From: Flavobacteriaceae bacterium
GTDB taxonomy: Bacteria > Bacteroidota > Bacteroidia > Flavobacteriales > Flavobacteriaceae
Direction of reading: 5' to 3'
NCBI GenBank assembly: GCA_947451525.1
Contig: CANFZM010000013.1
Span: 5,220-69,219, forward strand
Length of the DNA stretch: 64,000 nt
Every line of letters starts with the position of its first letter. The stretch's first letter is position 1. Shown here one piece after another: positions 3,715 to 49,775 of the stretch. The notes under the pieces are model-generated. The model did no database searches. It saw only the letters and a program-made list of their open reading frames with translations, and had not been told where the DNA came from. The position numbers and the translations under genes were made by a program.

Positions 3715-3964
3715 TGTGACTGTTATTTTTAAAAGTGTGCAAATATAAGGTATTAATGTCAAGTTACAAAAGCTTTAAAAATTGCAGTCTTCAAAACAGT
3801 CGTCCTATAAATTAAACTAATTTAATTTTTGCTAAATTACTTTTACAAATGATACATTAAGCTTTCTGAATATGGGATTTTTACAATTATTTTCTTATTG
3901 AATGTAAGAAAATCATTAGTAATTTCATTGAACTTTGTTGGATAATAATTAAAAAACTGTACCT

Positions 3965-5026: not shown

Positions 5027-6085
5027 ATGTTACAAATCGAAAAAAAAAACTGCTTTATAGCATTAGGGAAGTTTTTAAGCCAATTTTCATTAGATAATTC
5101 TGCGAAAAACCCTGCAGTTGTAAACAATGATTTGTTTTATGAGGAATTTTTAAACTTGATTGATTTATCGCAATCCCACAATGGATGGTTTACACCAGAT
5201 CAAGTTTATTTTGCTATACAATCTTGGGCAGAAGCACTTACCGAAGACAATTTAAATCTTTGGTTATCCAAATATGATTTCAGCACCATACAACCCAAAA
5301 CCGTTGCATTAATTTTAGCAGGAAACATTCCGCTAGTAGGTTTTCATGATTTTTTATCGGTAGTAATTTCAGGTCATAAAGTATTGGTAAAAACATCTTC
5401 TAACGATCAGAAACTGTTGCCTTTTTTAGCCAAATATCTTATTTCAATTCATCCTGAACTAGAAAACCACATCACCTTCACTGAAGGGAAAATGGAAAAT
5501 TTTGACGCCGTTATTGCCACAGGAAGCAATAATACAGCACGTTATTTTGAATATTATTTTAAAGACAAACCAAGTATTATTCGAAAAAGCAGAAATTCGG
5601 TTGCAGTTTTAACAGGAAATGAAACCCAAGAAAATTTAGCAAATTTAGGCGAAGATATTTTTAGATATTTTGGCTTGGGATGCCGAAATGTTTCTAAATT
5701 ATTTGTTCCAAAAGGCTATAATTTTGATGCTTTTTTTCAAGCAATTTACGAACAAAAGGACGTTATTTATTATGAAAAATATGCTAACAATTATGACTAC
5801 AACAAGGCAGTTTTCTTGATGAGTAATTTCAAATTATTAGATAATGAGTTCTTAACTATTAAGGAAGATTCTAGTTATGCCTCCCCTATTTCGTCGGTAT
5901 TTTATGAATTCTACGATGATATAAACGAAATTAAAAATCGTTTAGAAGTAGATGCAGAGCAAATTCAATGTATTGTTTCTAATGGAATTACAGATAATAG
6001 TATTCCATTTGGGCAAACCCAAAAACCAAACCTTTGGGACTATGCCGACAATGTAGATACTTTGGAATTTTTGTTGGGAATTTAG
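5027..6085 (+). CDS. Acyl-CoA reductase (LuxC-like)
   Basis: AGNIPLVGFHD, ATGSNNTARYF, YFGLGCRNVSK motifs. Confidence 0.85.
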   Translation: MLQIEKKNCFIALGKFLSQFSLDNSAKNPAVVNNDLFYEEFLNLIDLSQSHNGWFTPDQVYFAIQSWAEALTEDNLNLWLSKYDFSTIQPKTVALILAGNIPLVGFHDFLSVVISGHKVLVKTSSNDQKLLPFLAKYLISIHPELENHITFTEGKMENFDAVIATGSNNTARYFEYYFKDKPSIIRKSRNSVAVLTGNETQENLANLGEDIFRYFGLGCRNVSKLFVPKGYNFDAFFQAIYEQKDVIYYEKYANNYDYNKAVFLMSNFKLLDNEFLTIKEDSSYASPISSVFYEFYDDINEIKNRLEVDAEQIQCIVSNGITDNSIPFGQTQKPNLWDYADNVDTLEFLLGI

Positions 6086-32662: not shown

Positions 32663-33274
32663 ATGAATATTATAATTCACCCAAGTTATTTTCCTTCTAT
32701 AAGTCACTATGTTGCTTTAGCAAATGCCGACACGGTGACTTTGGAAATGGAAGATAACTTCCAAAAACAAACTAACCGCAACAGAATGTATATTTATAGT
32801 CCGAATGGCATTCAGTTACTGAATATTCCTATAAAACATTCTGATAATGCCCATCAAAAGATTCAGGATGTAAAATTGGAAACTGCATTTGATTGGCAAA
32901 AACAACATTTCAAATCGCTAGAAGCAGCCTATAGAACTTCACCTTTTTTTGAATATTTTGAGGATGATTTACGTCCAATTTTTACCAAAAAACATACTTT
33001 TTTAATGGATTTGAATTTGCAAACAATGGAACTTGTTTCTAAATGTTTGGGGATGAATTTTACTCCCGAAAAAACTACAGAATATTTTCACGAAATAAAG
33101 GACAAAACTGATTATCGAAATTTAATAAACGGAAAAAAAGACACTACACAACTAGAGTCTTACACTCAGGTATTTGATGATAAACATGGATTTATAAACA
33201 ATCTTAGTATTTTGGACTTATTGTTTAATGAAGGACGTTATGCTAAGGATTATTTGAAGAATCAAAAGTTGTGA
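32663..33274 (+). CDS. WbqC family protein
   Basis: PSYFPSI, FQKQTNRNR, NLSILDLLFNEG. Confidence 0.85.
   Translation: MNIIIHPSYFPSISHYVALANADTVTLEMEDNFQKQTNRNRMYIYSPNGIQLLNIPIKHSDNAHQKIQDVKLETAFDWQKQHFKSLEAAYRTSPFFEYFEDDLRPIFTKKHTFLMDLNLQTMELVSKCLGMNFTPEKTTEYFHEIKDKTDYRNLINGKKDTTQLESYTQVFDDKHGFINNLSILDLLFNEGRYAKDYLKNQKL
33242..33266 (+). repeat. Left direct repeat of the Fic islet (within the wbqC 3' end)
   Basis: GCTAAGGATTATTTGAAGAATCAAA versus GCAAAGGATTATTTGAAGAATCAAA at 34146-34170 (24/25). Confidence 0.85.
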
Positions 33275-33349
33275 TTCTAGAATTTATTTTCTAAATCCCT
33301 TATTTTTAATACCTTTATAAAGAAAAATGAATTTATACAATAATTTTAG

Positions 33350-33357
33350 TACCTTTG
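33350..33357 (+). promoter_or_regulatory. Bacteroidota -7 promoter box for the putative Fic antitoxin
   Basis: TACCTTTG (TAnnTTTG) 7 nt before the ATG. Confidence 0.6.
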
Positions 33358-33364
33358 TTGTGTT

Positions 33365-33559
33365 ATGAAATTCTACGAAAAATATCCGCAGTTACAAGAA
33401 AAAGACTTTTTATCTAAAGTACTTATAAATACTGTATTTTCTACAATGTCGCTTGAAGATCAACAAGTTTCAAAAGTTACGGTTACGAAAATTGTCGCAT
33501 CTATTTTAAAAGAAAAAGAATTAAAAGGAAGTCAATTCTTCACCAATCAGTTGGGTTAA
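33365..33559 (+). CDS. Small putative Fic antitoxin (alpha-inh-like motif)
   Basis: 64 aa with TMSLED resembling (S/T)xxxE(G/N); own TAnnTTTG box at 33350-33357; overlaps the fic 3' end by 39 nt. Confidence 0.55.
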   Translation: MKFYEKYPQLQEKDFLSKVLINTVFSTMSLEDQQVSKVTVTKIVASILKEKELKGSQFFTNQLG

Positions 33560-34105
33560 TAGTTGGTAGTTGCCACTATCGGCTTGTTTCATAGCATCAA
33601 TATAAAATTTTCTGCTTTCTCCTTCACGGAAATATAACTCTAAAGGTTGGTATCCAAATTTCATAGCAACAAGATTCATTAATAATCTTCCAGTTCTTCC
33701 ATTTCCATTATTGAACGGATGAATTCTAATAAATTCATAATGTGCATAAACCAAACACTCAATGTGTTCTTCCCGTTTTTTAGCAATTGAAATTTTAAAG
33801 TTTAAATTATCAATAAACTGATACATTGCTTGTAAAATCAATACAGGTTTGGGTGGAATTAGTTGCCCAACCGTTACTTCGATGATCCTCCATTTTCCTG
33901 CCCAATCATAAAGTTGTCCGAAAGCAATTTTGTGAATTTCAAGTAATAGATTGGTAGAAATTGAAATCTCTGAATCTAATTCAAATAGAAAAAACTCTGC
34001 ATTTGCAATCCCTTTTGCTTCTAACTCGTTGATTTCATTTTTATCCGTTAAACCAAGAAGATTATCGTCTGGAAAAGGAGTCCAGTTTGTATTAGTATCC
34101 TCCAT
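33521..34105 (-). CDS. Fic family protein
   Basis: HPFNNGNGRTGR Fic motif; IHKIAFGQLYDWAGKWR. Confidence 0.92.
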   Translation of the reverse strand: MEDTNTNWTPFPDDNLLGLTDKNEINELEAKGIANAEFFLFELDSEISISTNLLLEIHKIAFGQLYDWAGKWRIIEVTVGQLIPPKPVLILQAMYQFIDNLNFKISIAKKREEHIECLVYAHYEFIRIHPFNNGNGRTGRLLMNLVAMKFGYQPLELYFREGESRKFYIDAMKQADSGNYQLLTQLIGEELTSF

Positions 34106-34145
34106 ATTTAAAAAATATTTTTTACTATAATAAAGATTAAGTTTT

Positions 34146-34170
34146 GCAAAGGATTATTTGAAGAATCAAA
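34146..34170 (+). repeat. Right direct repeat of the Fic islet
   Basis: Reads AKDYLKNQTI* in the wbqC frame (TAA at 34176-34178). Confidence 0.85.
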
Positions 34171-34184
34171 CTATTTAAAATATA

Positions 34185-41484: not shown

Positions 41485-41628
41485 TTAATTTTGATTTAGT
41501 GTGTGCAAAAATAAAATTTTTATTGATAATTAAAAGCGATTTTTGTCGATATTTTTCAATAATTTGCACCCTCTTAAAAAAAGCAGAAAATTAATTTTGC
41601 TTTTCGTAGTATTTGTAAGCCATCACAC

Positions 41629-42708
41629 ATGTTTTTAAAAAAAATTTCTTTATTCAATTATAAAAATTTTTCGGAAGCAACCTTCGAATTTGACTCCAAA
41701 ATCAATTGTTTTGTTGGAAAAAACGGTGTTGGAAAGACAAATGTGCTCGATGCAATCTATCATTTAGCCAACGGAAAAAGTTATTTTAATCCGCTTGCAG
41801 TTCAAAATATAAAACACCAAGAGGAGTTTTTTGTCATTGATGGCGAATTTGAAAAAGCAGAACGATTAGAACAAATTGTAAGCAGTTTTAAAAAAGGCCA
41901 AAAGAAAATCCTAAAACGAAACAGCAAACCTTATGAGAAATTTTCGGATCATATAGGATTTATTCCTTTGGTAATTATTTCCCCTGCCGATAATGATTTG
42001 ATTATTGAAGGAAGCGAAACCCGAAGAAAGTTTATGGATAACGTGATTTCGCAATTGGATTCCTCCTATTTACAAGGACTGATTCAGTACCAAAAAATCC
42101 TTAGCCAACGTAATGCTTTACTGAAGTATTTTGCATTAAATCATGTCTTTGATAATGACACTTTATCTATTTACAACGAACAATTGAATGGTTTAGGACA
42201 AACTATTTTCGAAAAAAGAAAACAATTTATTGAAGAATTTTTACCCATTTTCAACAAGCACCACCAAACCATTACGGATTCTAGCGAAACAGTGCAGTTG
42301 GTTTATGAGAGCCATTTACTAGAACACGATACCTTAACTTTATTAGAACAAAATTTGGCTAAAGACCGTGCTTTACAGTATACTTCGGTTGGAATTCACA
42401 AGGATGATTTGGCATTTCAAATCGACAATTATCCCATAAAGAAATTTGGATCGCAAGGGCAACAAAAGTCTTTTTTAATTGCTTTAAAATTGGCGCAATT
42501 TGAATTTGTAAAAAAACAATCGGGCGAAAAACCAATTCTGCTTTTGGATGATATCTTTGACAAATTGGATGAAACCCGAGTAAGTAAAATTGTGAAAATG
42601 GTAAATCAGGAAGAATTCGGGCAATTATTTATTTCCGATACCCATCCGGAACGTACTGAAAACATTGTAAAAACTACCCACCAGAGTTATAAAATATTTA
42701 ACTTGTAA
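41629..42708 (+). CDS. recF: DNA replication/repair protein RecF
   Basis: [27 protein letters not shown]. Confidence 0.93.
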
Positions 42709-42761
42709 CTTTTGCTACATTGTTCTATTTTTACTTAATTAATTTTGACAAAAAAATACTT

Positions 42762-43457
42762 ATGAAAACAAAAATCGTTTCCTTAGTCGCAATGCTATTC
42801 CTATTAATAGGATGTCAAAAAGAAAATTCCAAAGAAATTCAAACCGTGGATTCTAAAGTTTTTGAAGATAAACTAAAAGTAACTGAGAACCCACAATTAA
42901 TAGACGTTAGGACTCCTGAGGAATTCAGTGTAGAACATTTAAAAAATGCAGCAAACATAAATTGGAATGGCAATTCCTTTGTTACGGATGCTGGAAAATA
43001 CGACAAGTCCAAACCGGTTTTTGTGTATTGCAAAGCAGGAGGAAGAAGCAGTGAAGCAGCAGCAAAATTAAAAGAATTAGGCTTCAAAGAAATCTACAAT
43101 TTGGATGGCGGAATCATGAAATGGACTGGCGAAAAAACTAGTGCTTCCAATACAGAGCGAATTGGAATAACCGCTGCCGATTATGACAAACTAATCCATT
43201 CCGATAAAAAAGTAGTCGTTAATTTCTATGCCGAATGGTGTGGCCCTTGCAAAAAAATGGCTCCTTACCTACTCCAAATGCAAGAAGAATTTAAAGGAAA
43301 AATAAAAATAGAACGATTGGATGCCGATGCCAATAAATCGATGATAGACGAAATGAAAATCAACGGATTGCCTGTAATTTTAATCTATGAAAATGGAAAA
43401 GAAGTTTGGCGACACCTTGGATATCTATCGGAAGAAGATTTGAGAAAAAAGTTGTAG
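42762..43457 (+). CDS. Lipoprotein with rhodanese + thioredoxin domains
   Basis: Lipobox LIGC; IDVRTPEEF, YCKAGGRS; WCGPC; start trimmed to MKTK. Confidence 0.85.
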   Translation: MKTKIVSLVAMLFLLIGCQKENSKEIQTVDSKVFEDKLKVTENPQLIDVRTPEEFSVEHLKNAANINWNGNSFVTDAGKYDKSKPVFVYCKAGGRSSEAAAKLKELGFKEIYNLDGGIMKWTGEKTSASNTERIGITAADYDKLIHSDKKVVVNFYAEWCGPCKKMAPYLLQMQEEFKGKIKIERLDADANKSMIDEMKINGLPVILIYENGKEVWRHLGYLSEEDLRKKL

Positions 43458-43579
43458 AAGATGGGAGATGGGAGATGGGAGTTCGAAGTATGAAATACAA
43501 AGCATGAAATATTTAAAAAACGAATTGAAGTTAATTTTCTAAACTCATAAACTTCTAAACTCATAAACTTATTAAAAAA

Positions 43580-44254
43580 ATGATAACAAAAGAAGCATTG
43601 CAATTTCTATCCGATTTAATTGCAAATAACAATACCGAGTGGATGCACGCCAATAAAAAGCGGTACGAAAGTTATAAAAAAGACTACCATAGTTTTATTA
43701 CTTCTATTTTGGCAGAAATGAAACCTTTGGACAAATCGTTAGAGGCATTGGAAGTGAAAAATTGCACTTTTAGAATCAATCGGGACATTCGTTTTTCCAA
43801 AGATAAGTCACCATACAAAACCAATATGGGCGTTTGGATGTCGCAAGACAAAAATCGTAAAAATGCTCCTGGATATTACATTCATTTTGAAGCCGAAAAC
43901 TGCTTCATCGCAGGTGGTGTTTGGTGTCCGGAAGCGGGAGAATTAAAACAAATCCGTAAAGAAATTGAATTTTTTCATGATGATTTGGAGAAAATTGTTT
44001 CCAACAAAAACTTCCAAAAAGAATTCAATCAATTGGATCGTGGCGAAAATAATGTTTTGAAGAAAGCACCAAAAGACTTTGATCCCAATCATCCAGCAAT
44101 TGAGTTTTTAAAACTAAAAAGTTTTACCGCTTCCCATAAAATTTCAGAAACTATTTTCTCGGAACCCGATTTTAGCAAAAAAATTGCTCAAAAGTTAATT
44201 ACATTAAAACCGCTAAACGACTTTTTAAGTAGAGCGTTAGAAACGGAAGAATAA
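43580..44254 (+). CDS. DUF2461 family protein
   Basis: NNNTEW, FRINRDIRFSKDKSPYKT. Confidence 0.85.
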   Translation: MITKEALQFLSDLIANNNTEWMHANKKRYESYKKDYHSFITSILAEMKPLDKSLEALEVKNCTFRINRDIRFSKDKSPYKTNMGVWMSQDKNRKNAPGYYIHFEAENCFIAGGVWCPEAGELKQIRKEIEFFHDDLEKIVSNKNFQKEFNQLDRGENNVLKKAPKDFDPNHPAIEFLKLKSFTASHKISETIFSEPDFSKKIAQKLITLKPLNDFLSRALETEE

Positions 44255-44392
44255 TTATTAAGTACAAAGTAAGAAATACGATATACGAGGTTTTAAAAAA
44301 TGAAGCAAATGGATTAAAACAATAAAAATCATTTTAAAATTGCAGACTTTGCGAAAAACTTTGCGAACTTTGCGGTTAAACCCCAATGGAAA

Positions 44393-45406
44393 ATGCAAAT
44401 TCAAGATAACTTTTCTTTAAAAAAATACAACACTTTTGGCATTGAAGCCAAGGCCAAACAATTTGTAAGCGTTCATTCTGAGGAGGAATTGCAATCGGTT
44501 TTAGAAAATCATAAAACGGATAAAAAATTCATTTTGGGTGGCGGAAGCAATATGCTGTTGACTCAAGATATTGATGCTTTGGTTATTCATGTCGATTTAA
44601 AAGGTAAGAAAATCCTTAAAGAAGACGACGATTCGGTTTGGGTGGAAAGTCAGGCTGGAGAAGCATGGCACGAATTAGTGCTTTGGACCATTGATCAAAA
44701 TTTTGGTGGATTAGAAAACATGTCGCTTATTCCTGGAAACGTTGGAACCACGCCAGTTCAAAATATTGGCGCTTATGGTACCGAGATTAAAGACACCTTT
44801 ATTTCTTGCGAAGCCATGAATATCGCCACTCAAGAAATAAGAACTTTTCTTAAAGAGGAATGTAATTTTGGTTATCGTGAAAGCATTTTCAAACACGAAG
44901 TGAAAGACCAATATGTAATTACTTCGGTGGTTTATAAACTTACCAAACGCAACCATAAAATCAACACCTCTTATGGTGATATCACAGCCCAATTAGCAAA
45001 AAACAATATCCAAATTCCAAATCTCAAAGACGTTTCTAATGCCGTAATTGCCATTCGCCGGAGCAAGTTACCAGACCCGAAAGAGTTAGGAAACAGCGGA
45101 AGTTTCTTTAAAAACCCAATTATTTCCAAAGAAGCATTTGAAAAAGTGCACGCCTTACATCCCGAAATGCCACATTATGTAATTTCCAAAACCGAAGTTA
45201 AAGTTCCTGCAGGTTGGCTTATCGAACAAGCCGGTTTTAAAGGAAAACGTTTTGGCGATGCCGGAATCCATAAAAACCAAGCACTTGTATTAGTAAATTA
45301 TGGAAACGCGACCGGGCAAGAAATTTTAAATGTTTCTAAAGACATTCAAATTACAGTTTTAAATAAATTCGGAATTGCTATTGAAGCAGAGGTTAATGTG
45401 ATTTAG
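44393..45406 (+). CDS. murB: UDP-N-acetylmuramate dehydrogenase
   Basis: GGGSNML, IPGNVG, QNIGAYG, GNSGSFFKNP, HKNQALVLVN. Confidence 0.95.
   Translation: MQIQDNFSLKKYNTFGIEAKAKQFVSVHSEEELQSVLENHKTDKKFILGGGSNMLLTQDIDALVIHVDLKGKKILKEDDDSVWVESQAGEAWHELVLWTIDQNFGGLENMSLIPGNVGTTPVQNIGAYGTEIKDTFISCEAMNIATQEIRTFLKEECNFGYRESIFKHEVKDQYVITSVVYKLTKRNHKINTSYGDITAQLAKNNIQIPNLKDVSNAVIAIRRSKLPDPKELGNSGSFFKNPIISKEAFEKVHALHPEMPHYVISKTEVKVPAGWLIEQAGFKGKRFGDAGIHKNQALVLVNYGNATGQEILNVSKDIQITVLNKFGIAIEAEVNVI
45388..45405 (+). repeat. Left direct repeat of the AAA-ATPase islet (murB 3' end)
   Basis: AGAGGTTAATGTGATTTA versus AGAGGTTTATGTGATTTA at 46810-46827 (17/18). Confidence 0.7.
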
Positions 45407-45551
45407 AAATCGATTTTATACCTATTTTATACAACTAATGTACATTATTTTCTTGCCATTTATATAAATTACACTTCTATTTATAGAACGATTTAAATAG
45501 GTTTAAATTATCAAAACTTGCATTTTTTGTTATTTTTGATAATTTATTTCA

Positions 45552-45559
45552 TATCTTTG
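45552..45559 (+). promoter_or_regulatory. -7 promoter box for the AAA ATPase
   Basis: TATCTTTG 4 nt before the ATG. Confidence 0.6.
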
Positions 45560-45563
45560 ATTT

Positions 45564-46793
45564 ATGAACCACTACACAAATCGTAAAGAATACATTGAAA
45601 AACTAATTGCTTACAAAGACAAAGATCTCATAAAAGTAGTTAGTGGATTACGTAGGTCCGGTAAAAGTACTCTACTAGAACTTTATCGTGAACTATTACT
45701 AAAACAAGGTGTTGGTAAACGGCAAATTCAGTTTTATAACTTTGAGTTGCCTGAAAATTATTTAAATAAATCGTGGGACGAAATTTACTTTGAAATAAAA
45801 AAGAAACTGCAATCCGACAAGACTAACTATATTTTTTTAGACGAAGTACAAAATATTCCACTTTTTGAAAAATTAGTAGATGGCCTTTTTGCTACAGAAA
45901 ACACAGATGTTTACATAACAGGCTCTAATGCATTTTTATTGAGTAGCGAATTGGCTACTTTATTGAGCGGTCGCTACATCGAAATTTCTATTTTACCTTT
46001 TTCATTTAAAGAATACTTAACTGCACGTAGTATTGACACGAGCAACAAATACCTTAATTACGAAGCCTTATTTTTTGATTTTGTAAACGAAACATCATTG
46101 CCTAAAGGTGTAGAATTGCGTGAAGAAGGTTTCGATAAAATTTATGAATATTTGGAGGCTATTTACACAACAATAATCGAAAAAGATATTACACAACGCC
46201 ACCAAATAAATGATAAAAGGGCATTTGGAAACATTGTAAAATTTATAGCATCAAATATTGGCAATTCGCTTTCGCCAAGCAATATATCAACTACCTTAAA
46301 GCAAGATAATCAAAGCATCCATCACGCCACTGTAGAAAAGTATTTAGAATATTTAGTGGAAAGTTTTGTGTTTTATAAAGTAAATCGATTTGATTTAAAA
46401 GGTAAAAAACAACTCGCAACACAAGAAAAATACTATCTAGTTGATGCCGGTTTGTTGAATATTTTAGCAGGTAAAGAACGAAATACCGACAGAGGACACC
46501 TTTTGGAAAATGTTGTTTACCTCGAACTGCTTCGAAGAGGCAACAAGATTTGGACAGGCACAACACGTAACACCGAAGTAGATTTTGTATGCAAATCCCC
46601 AACAGGAGAAATCGAATACTATCAAGTAGCATGGCAAATGGTAAATGAAAATACAATTGAACGGGAATTTGGCGCATTAGAAAAAATCAACGACAACTAC
46701 CCCAAATTTTTACTAACGACTGACTCTTTTACCCAAAACAGAAGCGGAATAAAACACTTAAACGTTTTTAGTTGGTTGCTCGAAACAAATTAA
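45564..46793 (+). CDS. AAA+ ATP-binding protein (AAA_14 + DUF4143-like)
   Basis: GLRRSGKST, FLDEVQ, TGSN, KYYLVD, LLENVVYLEL, EVDFV, YYQV. Confidence 0.85.
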   Translation: MNHYTNRKEYIEKLIAYKDKDLIKVVSGLRRSGKSTLLELYRELLLKQGVGKRQIQFYNFELPENYLNKSWDEIYFEIKKKLQSDKTNYIFLDEVQNIPLFEKLVDGLFATENTDVYITGSNAFLLSSELATLLSGRYIEISILPFSFKEYLTARSIDTSNKYLNYEALFFDFVNETSLPKGVELREEGFDKIYEYLEAIYTTIIEKDITQRHQINDKRAFGNIVKFIASNIGNSLSPSNISTTLKQDNQSIHHATVEKYLEYLVESFVFYKVNRFDLKGKKQLATQEKYYLVDAGLLNILAGKERNTDRGHLLENVVYLELLRRGNKIWTGTTRNTEVDFVCKSPTGEIEYYQVAWQMVNENTIEREFGALEKINDNYPKFLLTTDSFTQNRSGIKHLNVFSWLLETN

Positions 46794-46809
46794 TAGCAAG
46801 AACAATAAG

Positions 46810-46827
46810 AGAGGTTTATGTGATTTA
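46810..46827 (+). repeat. Right direct repeat of the AAA-ATPase islet
   Basis: Reads EVYVI* versus the murB end EVNVI*. Confidence 0.7.
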
Positions 46828-46880
46828 ATCTTGAAAATTAAATTTCACAACCATAATTCGTATTTCAAAATTGAATTCCG

Positions 46881-46888
46881 TACTTTTG
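46881..46888 (+). promoter_or_regulatory. -7 promoter box for the glycosyltransferase-sigma operon
   Basis: TACTTTTG. Confidence 0.55.
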
Positions 46889-46919
46889 CACACGTTAAAA
46901 AAAAGACAATAAAGCCATT

Positions 46920-48026
46920 ATGCTACTAATTTTACTTTGTTTATTTATTGCCGTTGTAGTTGTTCAATTTCTATATTATATAGTGTTTTTTGGTAAATTT
47001 TCATTTGCTAAACCGCAAATTTCTACTCCAAAAAGAGTTCCTATTTCTATAATTGTATGCGCAAAAAACGAAGAAGAAAATGTAAAAAACTTCATTCCTT
47101 TATTGGCAGAACAAAATTATCCTGATTACGAAATTGTCTTAATTGACGATGCTTCTAGCGATGAAACACTAGAGATTTTTGAAGCATTTGAAAAACAATA
47201 CTCCAATGTTAAATTGGTAAAAGTGCAAAATAACGAAGCGTTTTGGGGAAATAAAAAATTCGCTTTAACTCTCGGAATCAAAGCGGCTAAAAACGAATAT
47301 TTATTATTTACCGATGCCGATTGTTATCCTAAAACAACCGAGTGGATTAAAGAAATGAGCGCCCAATTCACCAAAGAAAAAACCATTGTTTTAGGGTATG
47401 GTGCTTACGAAAAAATCAAAAATTCGTTCCTAAATAAAATCATCCGTTTTGAAACTTTACTAACTGCAACCCAATATTTTTCTTGGGCAAAATTAGGAAA
47501 ACCCTATATGGGTGTTGGCCGCAACATGGCTTATAAACGAGAAGAATTCTTTAAAACTAATGGATTTATTGAGCACATGAAAATCCGTTCGGGAGACGAC
47601 GATTTGTTTATTAACGAAGCAGCAACTGCCAAGAATACAACCATTTGCTACACCACCGATAGTTTTACGTTTTCCAAACCAAAAACCACTTTCAAAGAAT
47701 GGTTTACCCAAAAAAGAAGACATGTTGCCACTGCCAAACATTATAAATCGTTTGATCGTAGCCAATTAGCCGTTTTCTACGCAACCCAATTATTGTTTTT
47801 CATACTGCCAATAATTCTATTAGCCTTTCAATTTCAATGGATTATCGTTTTAAGCATAATTGTTTTTCGTTATATTTTTGCTTGGATTTCCTTAGGATTT
47901 GCAGCCGGAAAACTAAATGAAAAAGACGTAATGTATTGGTTTCCAATAATTGAAATAATTTTAGTAGTTTCGCAATTAAACTTCTTCATCACCAACACGT
48001 TTTCAAAACCAGTGCAGTGGAAATAA
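46920..48026 (+). CDS. Family 2 glycosyltransferase
   Basis: CAKNEE, IDDASSD, FTDADC, GDDDL, QKRRH. Confidence 0.88.
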   Translation: MLLILLCLFIAVVVVQFLYYIVFFGKFSFAKPQISTPKRVPISIIVCAKNEEENVKNFIPLLAEQNYPDYEIVLIDDASSDETLEIFEAFEKQYSNVKLVKVQNNEAFWGNKKFALTLGIKAAKNEYLLFTDADCYPKTTEWIKEMSAQFTKEKTIVLGYGAYEKIKNSFLNKIIRFETLLTATQYFSWAKLGKPYMGVGRNMAYKREEFFKTNGFIEHMKIRSGDDDLFINEAATAKNTTICYTTDSFTFSKPKTTFKEWFTQKRRHVATAKHYKSFDRSQLAVFYATQLLFFILPIILLAFQFQWIIVLSIIVFRYIFAWISLGFAAGKLNEKDVMYWFPIIEIILVVSQLNFFITNTFSKPVQWK

Positions 48027-48568
48027 TTTCCTACATAGAAAAGGCTAAAAATGGCGACCAAGTGGCATTCACTTATTTGCTCGACCATTATTGGAACGAA
48101 GTCTATGGATTCATGTTAAAACGCACCGAAAACGAAACCGATTCCGAAGATATTACCATCGAAACCTTCTCCAAAGCATTTGACAAATTAACCACTTACA
48201 ACCCTGAATTTCAATTCAATACTTGGTTAATTGCCATCGCCAAAAACGTGCATATCGACTTACTCCGCAAAAAAAAATCGAGCCTTTTTGTAGAAATTAC
48301 CGACGAAGAAGACCAACAAGCCCACAACATTGCTGATAGTTCCCCATCTGCCGAAGACGAACTCATAACCGAGCAAAACCTCGCGCAACTCCTTCATTTC
48401 ATCAAAGAATTGAAACCGCATTACCAAGAAGTCATCCAACTGCGCTACTTCCAAGAAATGAGTTACCAAGAAATTGCCGAGCAACTCCAAGAGCCCTTGA
48501 GTAACGTAAAAATCAAACTCCTTCGCGCCAAAAAACTACTGGCCGAAATCATCCAAACCAAACGATAA
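48017..48568 (+). CDS. ECF-type RNA polymerase sigma factor
   Basis: FNTWLIAIAKN, MSYQEIAEQL, VKIKLLRAK. Confidence 0.9.
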   Translation: MEIISYIEKAKNGDQVAFTYLLDHYWNEVYGFMLKRTENETDSEDITIETFSKAFDKLTTYNPEFQFNTWLIAIAKNVHIDLLRKKKSSLFVEITDEEDQQAHNIADSSPSAEDELITEQNLAQLLHFIKELKPHYQEVIQLRYFQEMSYQEIAEQLQEPLSNVKIKLLRAKKLLAEIIQTKR

Positions 48569-48613
48569 ACACATTTTTTTACAATTATAAAAATAAAATA
48601 ATCCTATATTTCT

Positions 48614-48643
48614 CCCTCTCCTTTGGAGAGGGTTGGGGTGAGG
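48614..48643. repeat. GC-rich hairpin repeat
   Basis: CCCTCTCC-TTT-GGAGAGGG-TTGGGGTGAGG within a 20-bp perfect inverted repeat (48581-48600 / 48659-48678). Confidence 0.7.
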
Positions 48644-48731
48644 ATAGATTAAAAAAACTATTTTATTTTTATAATTGTTTTTAATATTCTCCTCCAAATT
48701 ATTAAAAACGAATCGATAGGCATTTTAGTAA

Positions 48732-48783
48732 ACCCTATTCCTGCTGTCCGCGCTACAAGGTAGCCTGCTCCCATCAGGGTTAA
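48732..48783 (-). ncRNA. Flavo-1-like element, compact copy 4
   Basis: Revcomp TAACCCTGATGGGAGCAGGCTACCTTGTAGCGCGGACAGCAGGAATAGG. Confidence 0.45.
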
Positions 48784-48974
48784 TCGGTGATGGTATTGAA
48801 TAGATGCAAAATTCAAAAGAAATATTCAATAAAAAAGAATCATAAAACACAATATCTTAACATTTTATTATATTTATTACTACAATCACACAATATCACC
48901 TAAAATATTGCGTTATTAAAATAAAAACACTTCGCGTATGTAACACCGATACTTAACCTTAAAAACAATAAATT

Positions 48975-49775
48975 ATGTCCAACGTTAGTATCTTTGAAAA
49001 AAAGTGGTTAGATCTTGTATTTCAAGACAAGAACCAAAAGTATGGTGCGTACCAATTACGCTTGAATAGTGAAAGAACAACCTTCTTTGCATTCCTATTC
49101 GGAATCAGTTTTTTAGTAGGCGGAACTTTTTTATTGAGTTCTTTTAGCACTGCTCCCGAAGTAATTCCTCCTGTTATTCCTTTAGATCCAACTATTCACG
49201 TTGTAGAAATCCATCCTCCAACAGAAGAAATTATACCAAAAGTAGAAACTCCTAAACCAGAAACTGCTGCGGTTAAAACTCCTGACGACAATCAGAACTA
49301 CCAAGTTGCTTCTAAAGAACAGGCAGTAATTCCAGTTACTAAAACTGCGGAGGCTCCTATTGTTAATGGTCCAACTTCCCCAACAGGAACAGGAACTGAA
49401 GGTATTGCAACCATCCCAGGAACTGGCACAGCGGTTACTCCAACAATCACTAATGCTGGCCCAGTAAAACCATCCGAATTAGACAGACAACCTTCGTTTC
49501 CTGGTGGAATGAAAAATTTCTACGACTATGTTGGGCGTAATTTTGAAAAACAAGAATTAGAGGAAGAAGGAGAAACCATCCGCGTTTTAGTTTCTTTTGT
49601 TATTGAAAAAAATGGCAACATGACCGACATTGAAGTAACACAAAGCAATAGTCAAGCGGTTAGTAAAGAAGCCGTACGAGTTTTAAAATCTTTAAAAACC
49701 AAATGGGAACCTGGCTATAAAGACAACCAAGCCGTAAGAACCCGATATACTTTACCAGTTGTTGTGCAACTGTAA
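48975..49775 (+). CDS. Energy transducer TonB
   Basis: NQKYGAYQLR, Pro/Thr-rich linker, PSFPGG, FVIEKNG, WEPG. Confidence 0.85.
   Translation: MSNVSIFEKKWLDLVFQDKNQKYGAYQLRLNSERTTFFAFLFGISFLVGGTFLLSSFSTAPEVIPPVIPLDPTIHVVEIHPPTEEIIPKVETPKPETAAVKTPDDNQNYQVASKEQAVIPVTKTAEAPIVNGPTSPTGTGTEGIATIPGTGTAVTPTITNAGPVKPSELDRQPSFPGGMKNFYDYVGRNFEKQELEEEGETIRVLVSFVIEKNGNMTDIEVTQSNSQAVSKEAVRVLKSLKTKWEPGYKDNQAVRTRYTLPVVVQL

Follow-up and report, generated by a model that had tools for sequence, protein, structure and literature searches.

Restriction-modification units of all types, as well as the solitary mcrA gene, are known to occur as an "insertion with long target duplication," in which repeats of 45-423 bp that overlap gene ends flank the unit (PMC2853133). 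The mechanism is unknown, and the authors suspected breakage by the restriction enzymes (Furuta, Abe & Kobayashi 2010, PMC2853133); the phenomenon is traced to Nobusato et al. 2000, as cited in PMC2853133. Here, we describe a comparable locus in a 64,000-nt window (the whole stretch of DNA analyzed; positions 5,220 to 69,219 of contig CANFZM010000013.1, assembly GCA_947451525.1) from a Flavobacteriaceae bacterium, where a gene for an AAA+/DUF4143 ATPase lies between murB and a second copy of the murB end (Table 1). The source genome is G000 below and its contigs and islets carry C-numbers, other genomes carry G-numbers (G420, G478, etc.), and fetched loci carry L-numbers. As with the restriction-modification units, a defense-type unit without mobility genes is missing from related genomes, a sequence present just once at the empty site is directly duplicated, and the repeats are locus-specific and variable, often lying over the 3' end of a neighboring gene. 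Unlike those cases, the cargo is a single ATPase rather than a restriction-modification system, one and the same cassette occupies many loci in different phyla, and the copies of a repeat often differ at synonymous sites, as alleles do, which points to recombination between genomes. At murB, the insert is absent from a relative, the empty site has a single copy, and there is no mobility gene, but the repeat of 19 nt (up to ~23-35 nt with the gapped relics of G000, L038, and L174) is shorter than the 30 bp used to define the class; repeats exceeding 30 bp (33-346 nt) are found at at least 20 sister loci.

Gene segments can also be duplicated by homology-facilitated illegitimate recombination or by Campbell-type single crossovers, integrase-independent events in which one junction is homologous and the other is a microhomology or the joint of a circle. 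Both duplicate the homologous segment, and the copies can be hybrids of donor and recipient. These processes were defined in the laboratory, in transformation or plasmid integration, whereas their part here is inferred from sequence patterns alone. The ATPase belongs to PDC-S01, a candidate family in which an ATPase is fused to a PD-(D/E)xK domain and which is the fourth commonest "defence" hit in prokaryotes; most PDCs still await validation (PMC12988326). DUF4143 was included in a published survey of the PD-(D/E)xK superfamily (PMC3424549).

The two copies of the murB end, AGAGGTTAATGTGATTTAG and AGAGGTTTATGTGATTTAA, match at 17 of 19 positions including the stop codons. An earlier note on this DNA, made by reading the sequence, had reported that EVNVI* recurs as EVYVI* 16 nt after the ATPase stop codon (46791-46793), with a 17/18 match, a stop at the end of both copies, and only the ATPase and its promoter between them. 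The coordinates and sequences proved correct, the match becoming 17/19 once the stops (TAG versus TAA) are counted, and the interval holds nothing but the 409-amino-acid (aa) ATPase open reading frame (ORF; 45564-46793) and its upstream region. The murB gene is intact, its final codons reading GAA GCA GAG GTT AAT GTG ATT TAG, and the C terminus EAEVN[VI]I* is kept in 22 genus relatives. A Pfam scan of eight neighboring ORFs (41629-49775) found no integrase or transposase.

We compared the locus to its relatives in the genus, using 40 of them for the synteny of murB with its downstream neighbor, a family-2 glycosyltransferase (GT2) gene, and searching 401 genus genomes with the spacer and the start of GT2. 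The adjacency of murB and GT2 is kept across these 40 relatives, in which the gap is either a 93-129-nt spacer or ~750 nt containing a paiB-like FMN_bind_2 gene. The closest relatives, L120, L121, and L122, have an empty site (murB, 86-93% aa identity; GT2, 89-95%; for L120, 93% and 95%), while L119 is filled, as is L038. In the empty alleles, a single murB end ...AGAGGTAAATGTGATTTAA runs directly into TTATTTAAATTTTACACCCCATAATTCGTATTTCAAAATTG; here, the relic AGAGGTTTATGTGATTTAA is followed by TCTTGAAAATTAAATTTCACAACCATAATTCGTATTTCAAAATTG and occupies precisely the place at which murB terminates in the empty alleles; it aligns with their murB end and shares its TAA stop. Because the empty-site murB end runs into the intergenic DNA that is found here after the second copy, the murB stop codon and the native murB-GT2 spacer have been separated by an insertion of 1,422 bp. 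The insertion dates to the common lineage of G000 and one or two sister species, and the ATPase is thus not ancestral at this locus; the refuting case that the earlier note had named, an ancestral ATPase, does not apply.

By its raw statistics, the 17/19 repeat is unexceptional, and this raises the potential that it is an AT-rich coincidence beside an ATPase that arrived by an unrelated route. Other repeats of 17-18 nt with 94% identity occur within the same 4 kb of 33% G+C DNA, and shuffled controls give ~2 chance matches per genome. However, a shuffled 19-mer finds ~1.9e-7 matches per searched base in G000, or ~8e-6 over the 40 nt that the empty site marks out independently, and chance is ruled out by where the second copy lies, at the very point where murB ends in the empty-site alleles. 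Sister alleles have relics at the same place, the signature is family-wide, and other Flavobacterium species, in which the paiB-like gene fills the gap between murB and GT2, serve as a negative control and show no copy of the murB end even at 4 mismatches. For practical purposes, coincidence is refuted. The murB-GT2 junction thus occurs in three states: empty, paiB-like (L003-L007, L010, and L017-L020), and ATPase.

The filled alleles differ at the right junction. G000 and L038 have left junctions that are identical base for base, and at the right junction they differ at 12 of 23 positions with no change in net length, while the adjoining native spacer (46829..46919) shows few differences from L038/L119. 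Scans of metagenomes yielded one further filled allele, L174, and no same-species empty-site junction. L038/L119 and L174 share the left junction with G000 and carry a murB-end relic, but they retain 12 nt, GAATAACTACTG, from the motif that follows the stop in the cassette; these 12 nt overlap murB's GAATTACTATTG and are followed by AAGCC-AATTTGAT[A/T]TAA, the murB end with a 6-nt gap. G000 instead has ...GAACAATAAG followed by AGAGGTTTATGTGATTTAA. Because the right junctions differ in this way, the relic has been remodeled in one lineage; on the simplest reading, the working murB end served as the template for a short conversion, and part of the 17/19 similarity may then be secondary. Each of the two copies in G000 differs from the empty-site allele at two positions. 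We also looked for an imported tract in murB by a three-way comparison of G000, L038, and L120, which gave a mosaic with no interpretable breakpoint. Between G000 and L038, synteny breaks just 5' of murB (~41500-44300), where the gene for a DUF2461 protein and the genes preceding it are unalignable in L038.

Table 1. Features of the murB locus and of further islets in G000. Positions without a contig number refer to the window.
Feature	Location	Strand	Basis or remarks
murB (UDP-N-acetylenolpyruvoylglucosamine reductase), intact, ends EAEVNVI*	44393..45406	+	Pfam MurB_C 1.5e-28, FAD_binding_4 1.7e-17
Left repeat copy AGAGGTTAATGTGATTTAG, the working final 19 nt of murB including the TAG stop	45388..45406	+	
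Left flank carried with the cassette, ~99 nt	45407..45505	+	blastn boundaries 45432-45481 in L041, L049, L040, L039, L043
39-nt palindrome, arms AATTATCAAAACT / ATTTTTGATAATT; probable operator overlapping the promoter	45506..45544	+	Sequence comparison
TATCTTTG, fits Bacteroidota -7 promoter motif TAnnTTTG, 4 nt 5' of ATG	45552..45559	+	Read from sequence, kept in homologues
409-aa AAA_14 + DUF4143 ATPase, PADLOC candidate family PDC-S01	45564..46793	+	Pfam, PADLOC, alignments
Cassette right flank	46794..46809	+	TAGCAAGAA, the beginning of the post-stop motif AAGCAAGAATAACCACTGGCCACAAC conserved in the family, truncated, then CAATAAG
Right repeat copy AGAGGTTTATGTGATTTAA, murB-end relic (EVYVI*, TAA stop) without gene body	46810..46828	+	
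Native murB-GT2 intergenic region with GT2 promoter, 91 nt	46829..46919	+	Aligns with empty-site spacers of 86-129 nt
GT2, conserved downstream neighbor of murB in the genus	46920..48026	+	Pfam Glycos_transf_2 7.6e-25, synteny
ParE toxin islet	C3 108977-109361	+	Repeat ~50-90 nt
Mrr endonuclease islet	C45		Repeat 32 nt
DUF1801/OmdA protein islet	C34		Repeat ~100-146 nt
Small two-gene islet, 76 + 104 aa	C21		
Islet of two proteins with type IX secretion system (T9SS) tails	C4 = L148 (G000:C4:29800-34400)		Repeat ~250 nt

The inserted ATPase gene has relatives far beyond the genus. Among 384 ATPase-related stretches, we based the family comparisons on the best 80, whose proteins are 83-97% identical and whose hosts are Flavobacterium, Chitinophaga, Prolixibacteraceae, Sphingobacterium, Pedobacter, Saprospiraceae, Ignavibacteriota, Chlorobiota, and one metagenome-assembled genome labeled Clostridia. 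By comparison, murB identity within the genus is 57-83%, versus the 83-97% that the ATPase keeps across phyla. The gene always occurs in one compact unit, which at the DNA level has 74-93% similarity and extends from ~45504 to ~46805, with a sharp start at 45503-45509 and an end at 46775-46808 (blastn), and the gene has a G+C content of 34.5 +/- 2% regardless of host flanks at 30-52%. These comparisons identify the unit as a horizontally traveling one-gene cassette composed of a putative palindromic operator, a promoter, and a PDC-S01-type ATPase gene. The left flank from ~45432 on is common to Flavobacterium copies at unrelated loci, and the DNA between repeat and cassette varies from 9 to 365 nt on the left and from 0 to 210 nt on the right. 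The ends of the inserted pieces are therefore ragged.

The palindrome (consensus AATTATCAAAACTTGCA-n5-TGCAAGTTTTGATAATT) is present in all 80 homologous loci, with arms of 13-17 nt that are often perfect and that co-vary, for example from ATCAAAAC...GTTTTGAT to ATCGAAAC...GTTTCGAT. Its right arm usually stops 19 nt 5' of the ATG, as it does at the murB locus, and it lies in the same place in L038-L117. This arrangement makes it a probable operator overlapping the promoter. The TAnnTTTG box of the ATPase gene, which we take to be the Bacteroidota -7 promoter motif, ends so close to the start codon (4 nt) that it suggests a near-leaderless transcript. A second palindrome copy is found just 3' of the gene in L076 and L066 and ~100 nt upstream in L088 and L082.

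Many Bacteroidales-type copies are also bracketed by an inverted motif pair, GTTGTGGCCAATGG, which precedes the ATG by 100 or 176 nt, and CCACTGGCCACAAC, which follows the stop by 8 nt (examples are L048, L069, L106, L111, L080, and L065). It is conceivable that these motifs are the terminal inverted repeats of a nonautonomous cargo transposon whose transposase is encoded elsewhere, the murB-end repeat being incidental. The right motif does occupy its fixed post-stop place in ~35 of the 80 loci, and the inverted copy appears at its 100- or 176-nt distance in ~20. Nevertheless, no short target duplication abuts the motifs, homology between related loci extends beyond them, and the long repeats lie outside them at variable distance. 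The murB locus lacks the pair, having no left motif and just 9 nt of the right one, and, unlike a DDE-type transposon or insertion sequence, it has no short target duplication of fixed length. We consider transposition of this kind very unlikely.

The encoded protein matches AAA_14 with 107.1 bits (cut-off 27; residues 22-152) and DUF4143 with 89.6 bits (cut-off 28.1; residues 206-356), and residues 1-407 match positions 6-408 of the 412 in the PADLOC PDC-S01 sub-model PDLC04787 (E = 2.2e-144). In being a single-gene unit with a full-length match to this model, and in joining an ATPase to a domain of PD-(D/E)xK fold, it resembles PDC-S01 as described; its subfamily differs in having Q-V-A for the catalytic E-x-K and a conserved 39-bp promoter palindrome. 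We aligned the motifs of the ATPase, six G000 paralogues, and 28 close homologues. The Walker A (GLRRSGKST) and Walker B (FLDEV) motifs are present and are invariant or nearly so in 29 homologues. In the PD-(D/E)xK site, E315 and D340 are retained, while the E-x-K position aligns with Q354-V-A356; this YYQVAW stretch is nearly invariant among 29 subfamily homologues, whereas the six G000 paralogues have E-[VFYC]-K. The pattern of active PD-(D/E)xK nucleases, a catalytic D followed by (D/E)-x-K, thus appears to be lacking. Because the nuclease motif is degenerate, no DNA cutting by the protein itself is expected, and it is probably without canonical nuclease activity. The ATPase is most likely an ATP-driven, DNA-binding defense or conflict factor that represses its own promoter via the palindrome. 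AlphaFold2, run on a 30-sequence alignment, gave a mean predicted local distance difference test score (pLDDT) of 52, with values below 50 throughout the C-terminal domain, too low for the model to serve as a check on the nuclease motif; a sequence search of the PDB returned no solved relative at E<=0.01, and an NCBIfam search with the ATPase returned no match. In the literature, our coverage of which was incomplete, we found no link between this ATPase family and flanking duplications. Some Bacteroidales genomes (G419, G420, and G422) contain 10-15 DUF4143 ATPase paralogues, three of them within 8 kb of one G422 contig.

Repeats like that at murB are also found around other copies of the cassette. 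We compared 400 nt upstream with 150 nt downstream of each cassette in an ungapped direct-repeat search, and 21 of 70 loci, including murB, scored at least 15, against a maximum of 14 in 400 mismatched locus pairs. With blastn at E<=1e-5, flanking repeats were detected at 24 of 68 cassette loci, in 1 of 300 mismatched pairs, and at 1 of 300 random G000 genes. Direct repeats of the local target, specific to each locus, therefore flank about one third of the cassette copies. These repeats differ at every locus and range from 19 to 346 nt with 80-100% identity (L049, 346 nt; L104, 291; L078, 169; L072, 145; L089, 133; L040, 106; L095, 104; L110, 103; and L055, 55). Where they span the 3' end of a neighboring gene, their inner edge falls mostly on the outer edge of its stop codon, whether that gene is upstream on the same strand (murB, L055, and L095), is convergent and downstream (L084; L040, 2 nt off; and L049), or belongs to one of the G000 islets described below (C3, C4, C34, C21, and Fic). 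The stop of the intact gene is TAG in 6 of 7 exact-edge cases (murB, C3, C4, C21, L055, and L095), while TAG makes up 17% of G000 stops (post hoc P ~1.5e-4); the relics at murB and C4 have TAA.

Direct repeats that include a restored gene 3' end are the classical signature of attachment (att) sites, and so a nonautonomous element with an att site mimicking the murB end might have been integrated by a tyrosine or serine recombinase acting in trans, much as some elements rebuild tRNA 3' ends. Elements at tRNA and tmRNA genes do share with our locus a duplicated gene end, an intact working copy, and a relic on the far side. In the cassette family, however, the target and the sequence and length of the repeat (19-346 nt) differ at every locus, there is no shared att core, the cassette ends are not fixed, and there is no integrase or other recombinase in the insert or its neighborhood. 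Site-specific integration is largely refuted by the locus-specific repeats, and we regard it as highly improbable.

The signature is not confined to this ATPase. The earlier note had pointed to a second islet of the same design within 13 kb, and the window does contain one, a Fic islet (33242-34178) with a duplicated gene end whose alternative forms, ...AKDYLKNQKL* and ...AKDYLKNQTI*, are equal in length. The same note had proposed scanning the genome for gene-end repeats, tabulating their cargo, and setting the count against a shuffled control. We therefore took the final 19 nt of 2,212 G000 ORFs (>=120 aa) and looked for a copy with at most 2 mismatches 0.2-5 kb downstream. The real ends gave 12 genes with a match, compared to 2 for shuffled 19-mers, 2 for reversed ones, and 1 for internal 19-mers; real ends searched upstream gave 4, and the 19 nt directly after the stop, searched downstream, gave 7. 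Such near-repeats are thus not at chance frequency, with the reservation that a tandem paralogue accounts for one of the 12 cases and that three or four are questionable. The cargo is mostly conflict genes: pairs of YafQ and Gp49/HigB-like toxins, ParE, Mrr, and this ATPase.

Several of these islets repeat the layout at murB. On the reverse strand of C3 (130793-134150, plus 1.6 kb downstream), toxin-antitoxin pairs of the YafQ type and of the Gp49/HigB-like plus helix-turn-helix type follow one another in series, and the 3'-terminal ~75-80 nt (122-126 nt by ungapped extension) of a single 1,118-aa gene are copied after each pair. TAG closes all three of these gene-end copies, and the layout resembles a small cassette array split by gene-end repeats. 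At C45, the C3 ParE islet, C34, and C21, the end of the upstream gene is copied after the cargo over 25-146 nt. In the C4 islet, the final ~82 codons of a membrane-protein gene (424-1122 of L148; 232 aa) recur 2.7 kb downstream in a relic that ends at 3880, and the relatives L149-L151 have an empty site. From two such islets, the earlier note had suggested a general, integrase-independent route for parking genes behind essential genes. This reading is supported, as neither of the two checks that the note had named, the shuffled control and synteny, refuted it. The absence of a recombinase, the locus-specific repeats of variable length, and the ragged ends agree with its integrase-independent part, but essentiality is not part of the rule, as the neighboring genes are diverse. 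At the murB locus, the neighbors are genes for a DUF2461 protein, murB, GT2, an extracytoplasmic function (ECF) sigma factor, and a TonB-like protein.

How might such repeats arise? We favor, with slightly better than even confidence, a single explanation that covers the insertion, the relic, a spread by host recombination free of any integrase, and the proposed defense function. No transposase or integrase would be involved. The cassette would have come on DNA from another strain or species, where it was already placed behind the same gene, and host homologous recombination would have integrated it within the conserved gene end, either by a single crossover with a circular molecule carrying gene end and cassette or by a homologous anchor combined with one microhomology join. 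One gene end would remain on the gene, and the other would be left stranded as the relic. Since diverged genomes remain alignable only as far as the coding sequence extends, the edge of the repeat would fall at the stop codon. For the 19-nt murB site itself, we infer either microhomology or recombination with incoming DNA.

In three long diverged repeats, the differing codons were predominantly synonymous (synonymous/nonsynonymous, 18/6 in L053, 8/2 in L062, and 20/1 in the C4 islet), and third positions accounted for 20 of 27, 9 of 11, and 19 of 21 differences, respectively. Pooled, 48 of 59 differences lie at third positions (P = 4e-14 versus 1/3; P = 4e-9 versus the 44% expected under neutral relic decay), and the copies in L084 show a TCA/AGT switch of serine codons. 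Because the long repeats differ mainly at synonymous sites, the data favor their being two alleles kept under protein-level selection, and hence recombination between diverged alleles over a staggered cut. At the C4 sites that differ between the copies, the working copy matches the empty allele in the 5' part (9/12) and the relic matches it in the 3' part (6/8), a gradient that would be the pattern of a single reciprocal crossover, although as a signal it is weak. In two Mariniphaga-like species (G420 and G478), the cassette and its noncoding right flank are ~98% identical while the flanking gene is ~90% identical, and the G478 relic carries the working-copy allele of G420 over ~27 nt; the loci showing this 98%/90% contrast, which speaks for recombination between species, are L062 (3799-5459) and L173 (G478:C248). 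Finally, in L055 (AATAACCAC) and in L038/L174 (GAATAACTACTG versus murB's GAATTACTATTG), there is microhomology to the cassette's post-stop motif at the far junction.

Alternatively, the repeats may have been made in place, as has been offered for restriction-modification units (PMC2853133). Two distant single-strand breaks, or a fork template switch resembling microhomology-mediated break-induced replication, would allow a linear cassette to be copied or ligated in and the intervening 19 nt to be duplicated, and later replacement of the working copy by core-genome recombination would produce the synonymous differences at older loci. Under this alternative, the ragged cassette ends would be those of captured fragments, and it is consistent with the two murB-end copies being equally near the empty-site allele and with repeats that are 100% identical at several loci (L040, L055, L095, and L072). 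Yet a second event has to be invoked for differences of 9-20% that are biased to third positions while the relics have hardly decayed, the alternative leaves the repeat edge on the stop codon without a reason, and a cassette with a degenerate nuclease motif is an unlikely source of breaks. We think duplication in place unlikely on balance, but it is the likeliest of the rivals.

A number of observations weigh against the recombination of incoming DNA that we favor, some of them by suiting duplication in place. The 346-nt repeat of L049 has 11 nonsynonymous and 8 synonymous differences and no gradient against an 82%-identical outgroup, and it appears to fit a duplicate made in place with a decaying relic. 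The repeats of L055, L095, and L040 are 100% identical and yet end at the stop codon; to accommodate them, the model has to assume either a secondary gene conversion or that the primary insertion hit the stop precisely. At murB, a repeat of 19 nt with 2 differences is short for a RecA-dependent crossover, and the allele test has no power; in addition, no imported tract stands out clearly in the murB gene of G000, whose final 234 nt are nearer to empty L120 than to filled L038. The C4 gradient is marginally significant (P = 0.03-0.065). The use of TAG in 6 of the 7 exact-edge cases has no explanation in the model, which also leaves the cassette's first arrival at a new gene unexplained. As for function, a defense role for PDC-S01 is a candidate role, with no experimental validation reported in PMC12988326.

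We propose, tentatively and with well under even confidence, that the gene-end repeats turn single conflict genes (the PDC-S01 ATPase, Fic, YafQ, HigB-like, ParE, and Mrr) into an integrase-free mobile form. The unit would loop out via its repeats using host homologous recombination alone, travel as a circle or as a fragment with one gene end, and, in another strain or species, be taken up into the chromosome when one crossover occurs in the end of the orthologous gene.

The phenomenon itself has already been described for restriction-modification units. What is added here is the empty-site proof at murB, controlled frequencies across the family and the genome, the stop-codon edge, the allele-like divergence of the copies, and the degenerate nuclease motif. 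How small defense and toxin genes scattered among core genes are transported is an open question in bacterial immunity, and the murB locus offers a clean, empty-site-verified case of a recurrent signature, while the family supplies natural replicates by the dozen, some of them very recent, with repeats that are 100% identical. The strong conservation, the probable palindromic operator, and the lost canonical nuclease motif of this PDC-S01 subfamily are traits relevant to tests of its function, and the allele-like differences between copies provide a testable alternative to the staggered-cut idea for restriction-modification units. If the proposed cycle is true, the stop-codon edge of the repeats would be a footprint of where homology between species ends, the "long target duplications" noted in 2000 and still unexplained would gain a mechanism, and a general rule would emerge for how small defense and toxin genes spread between the core genes of Bacteroidota.

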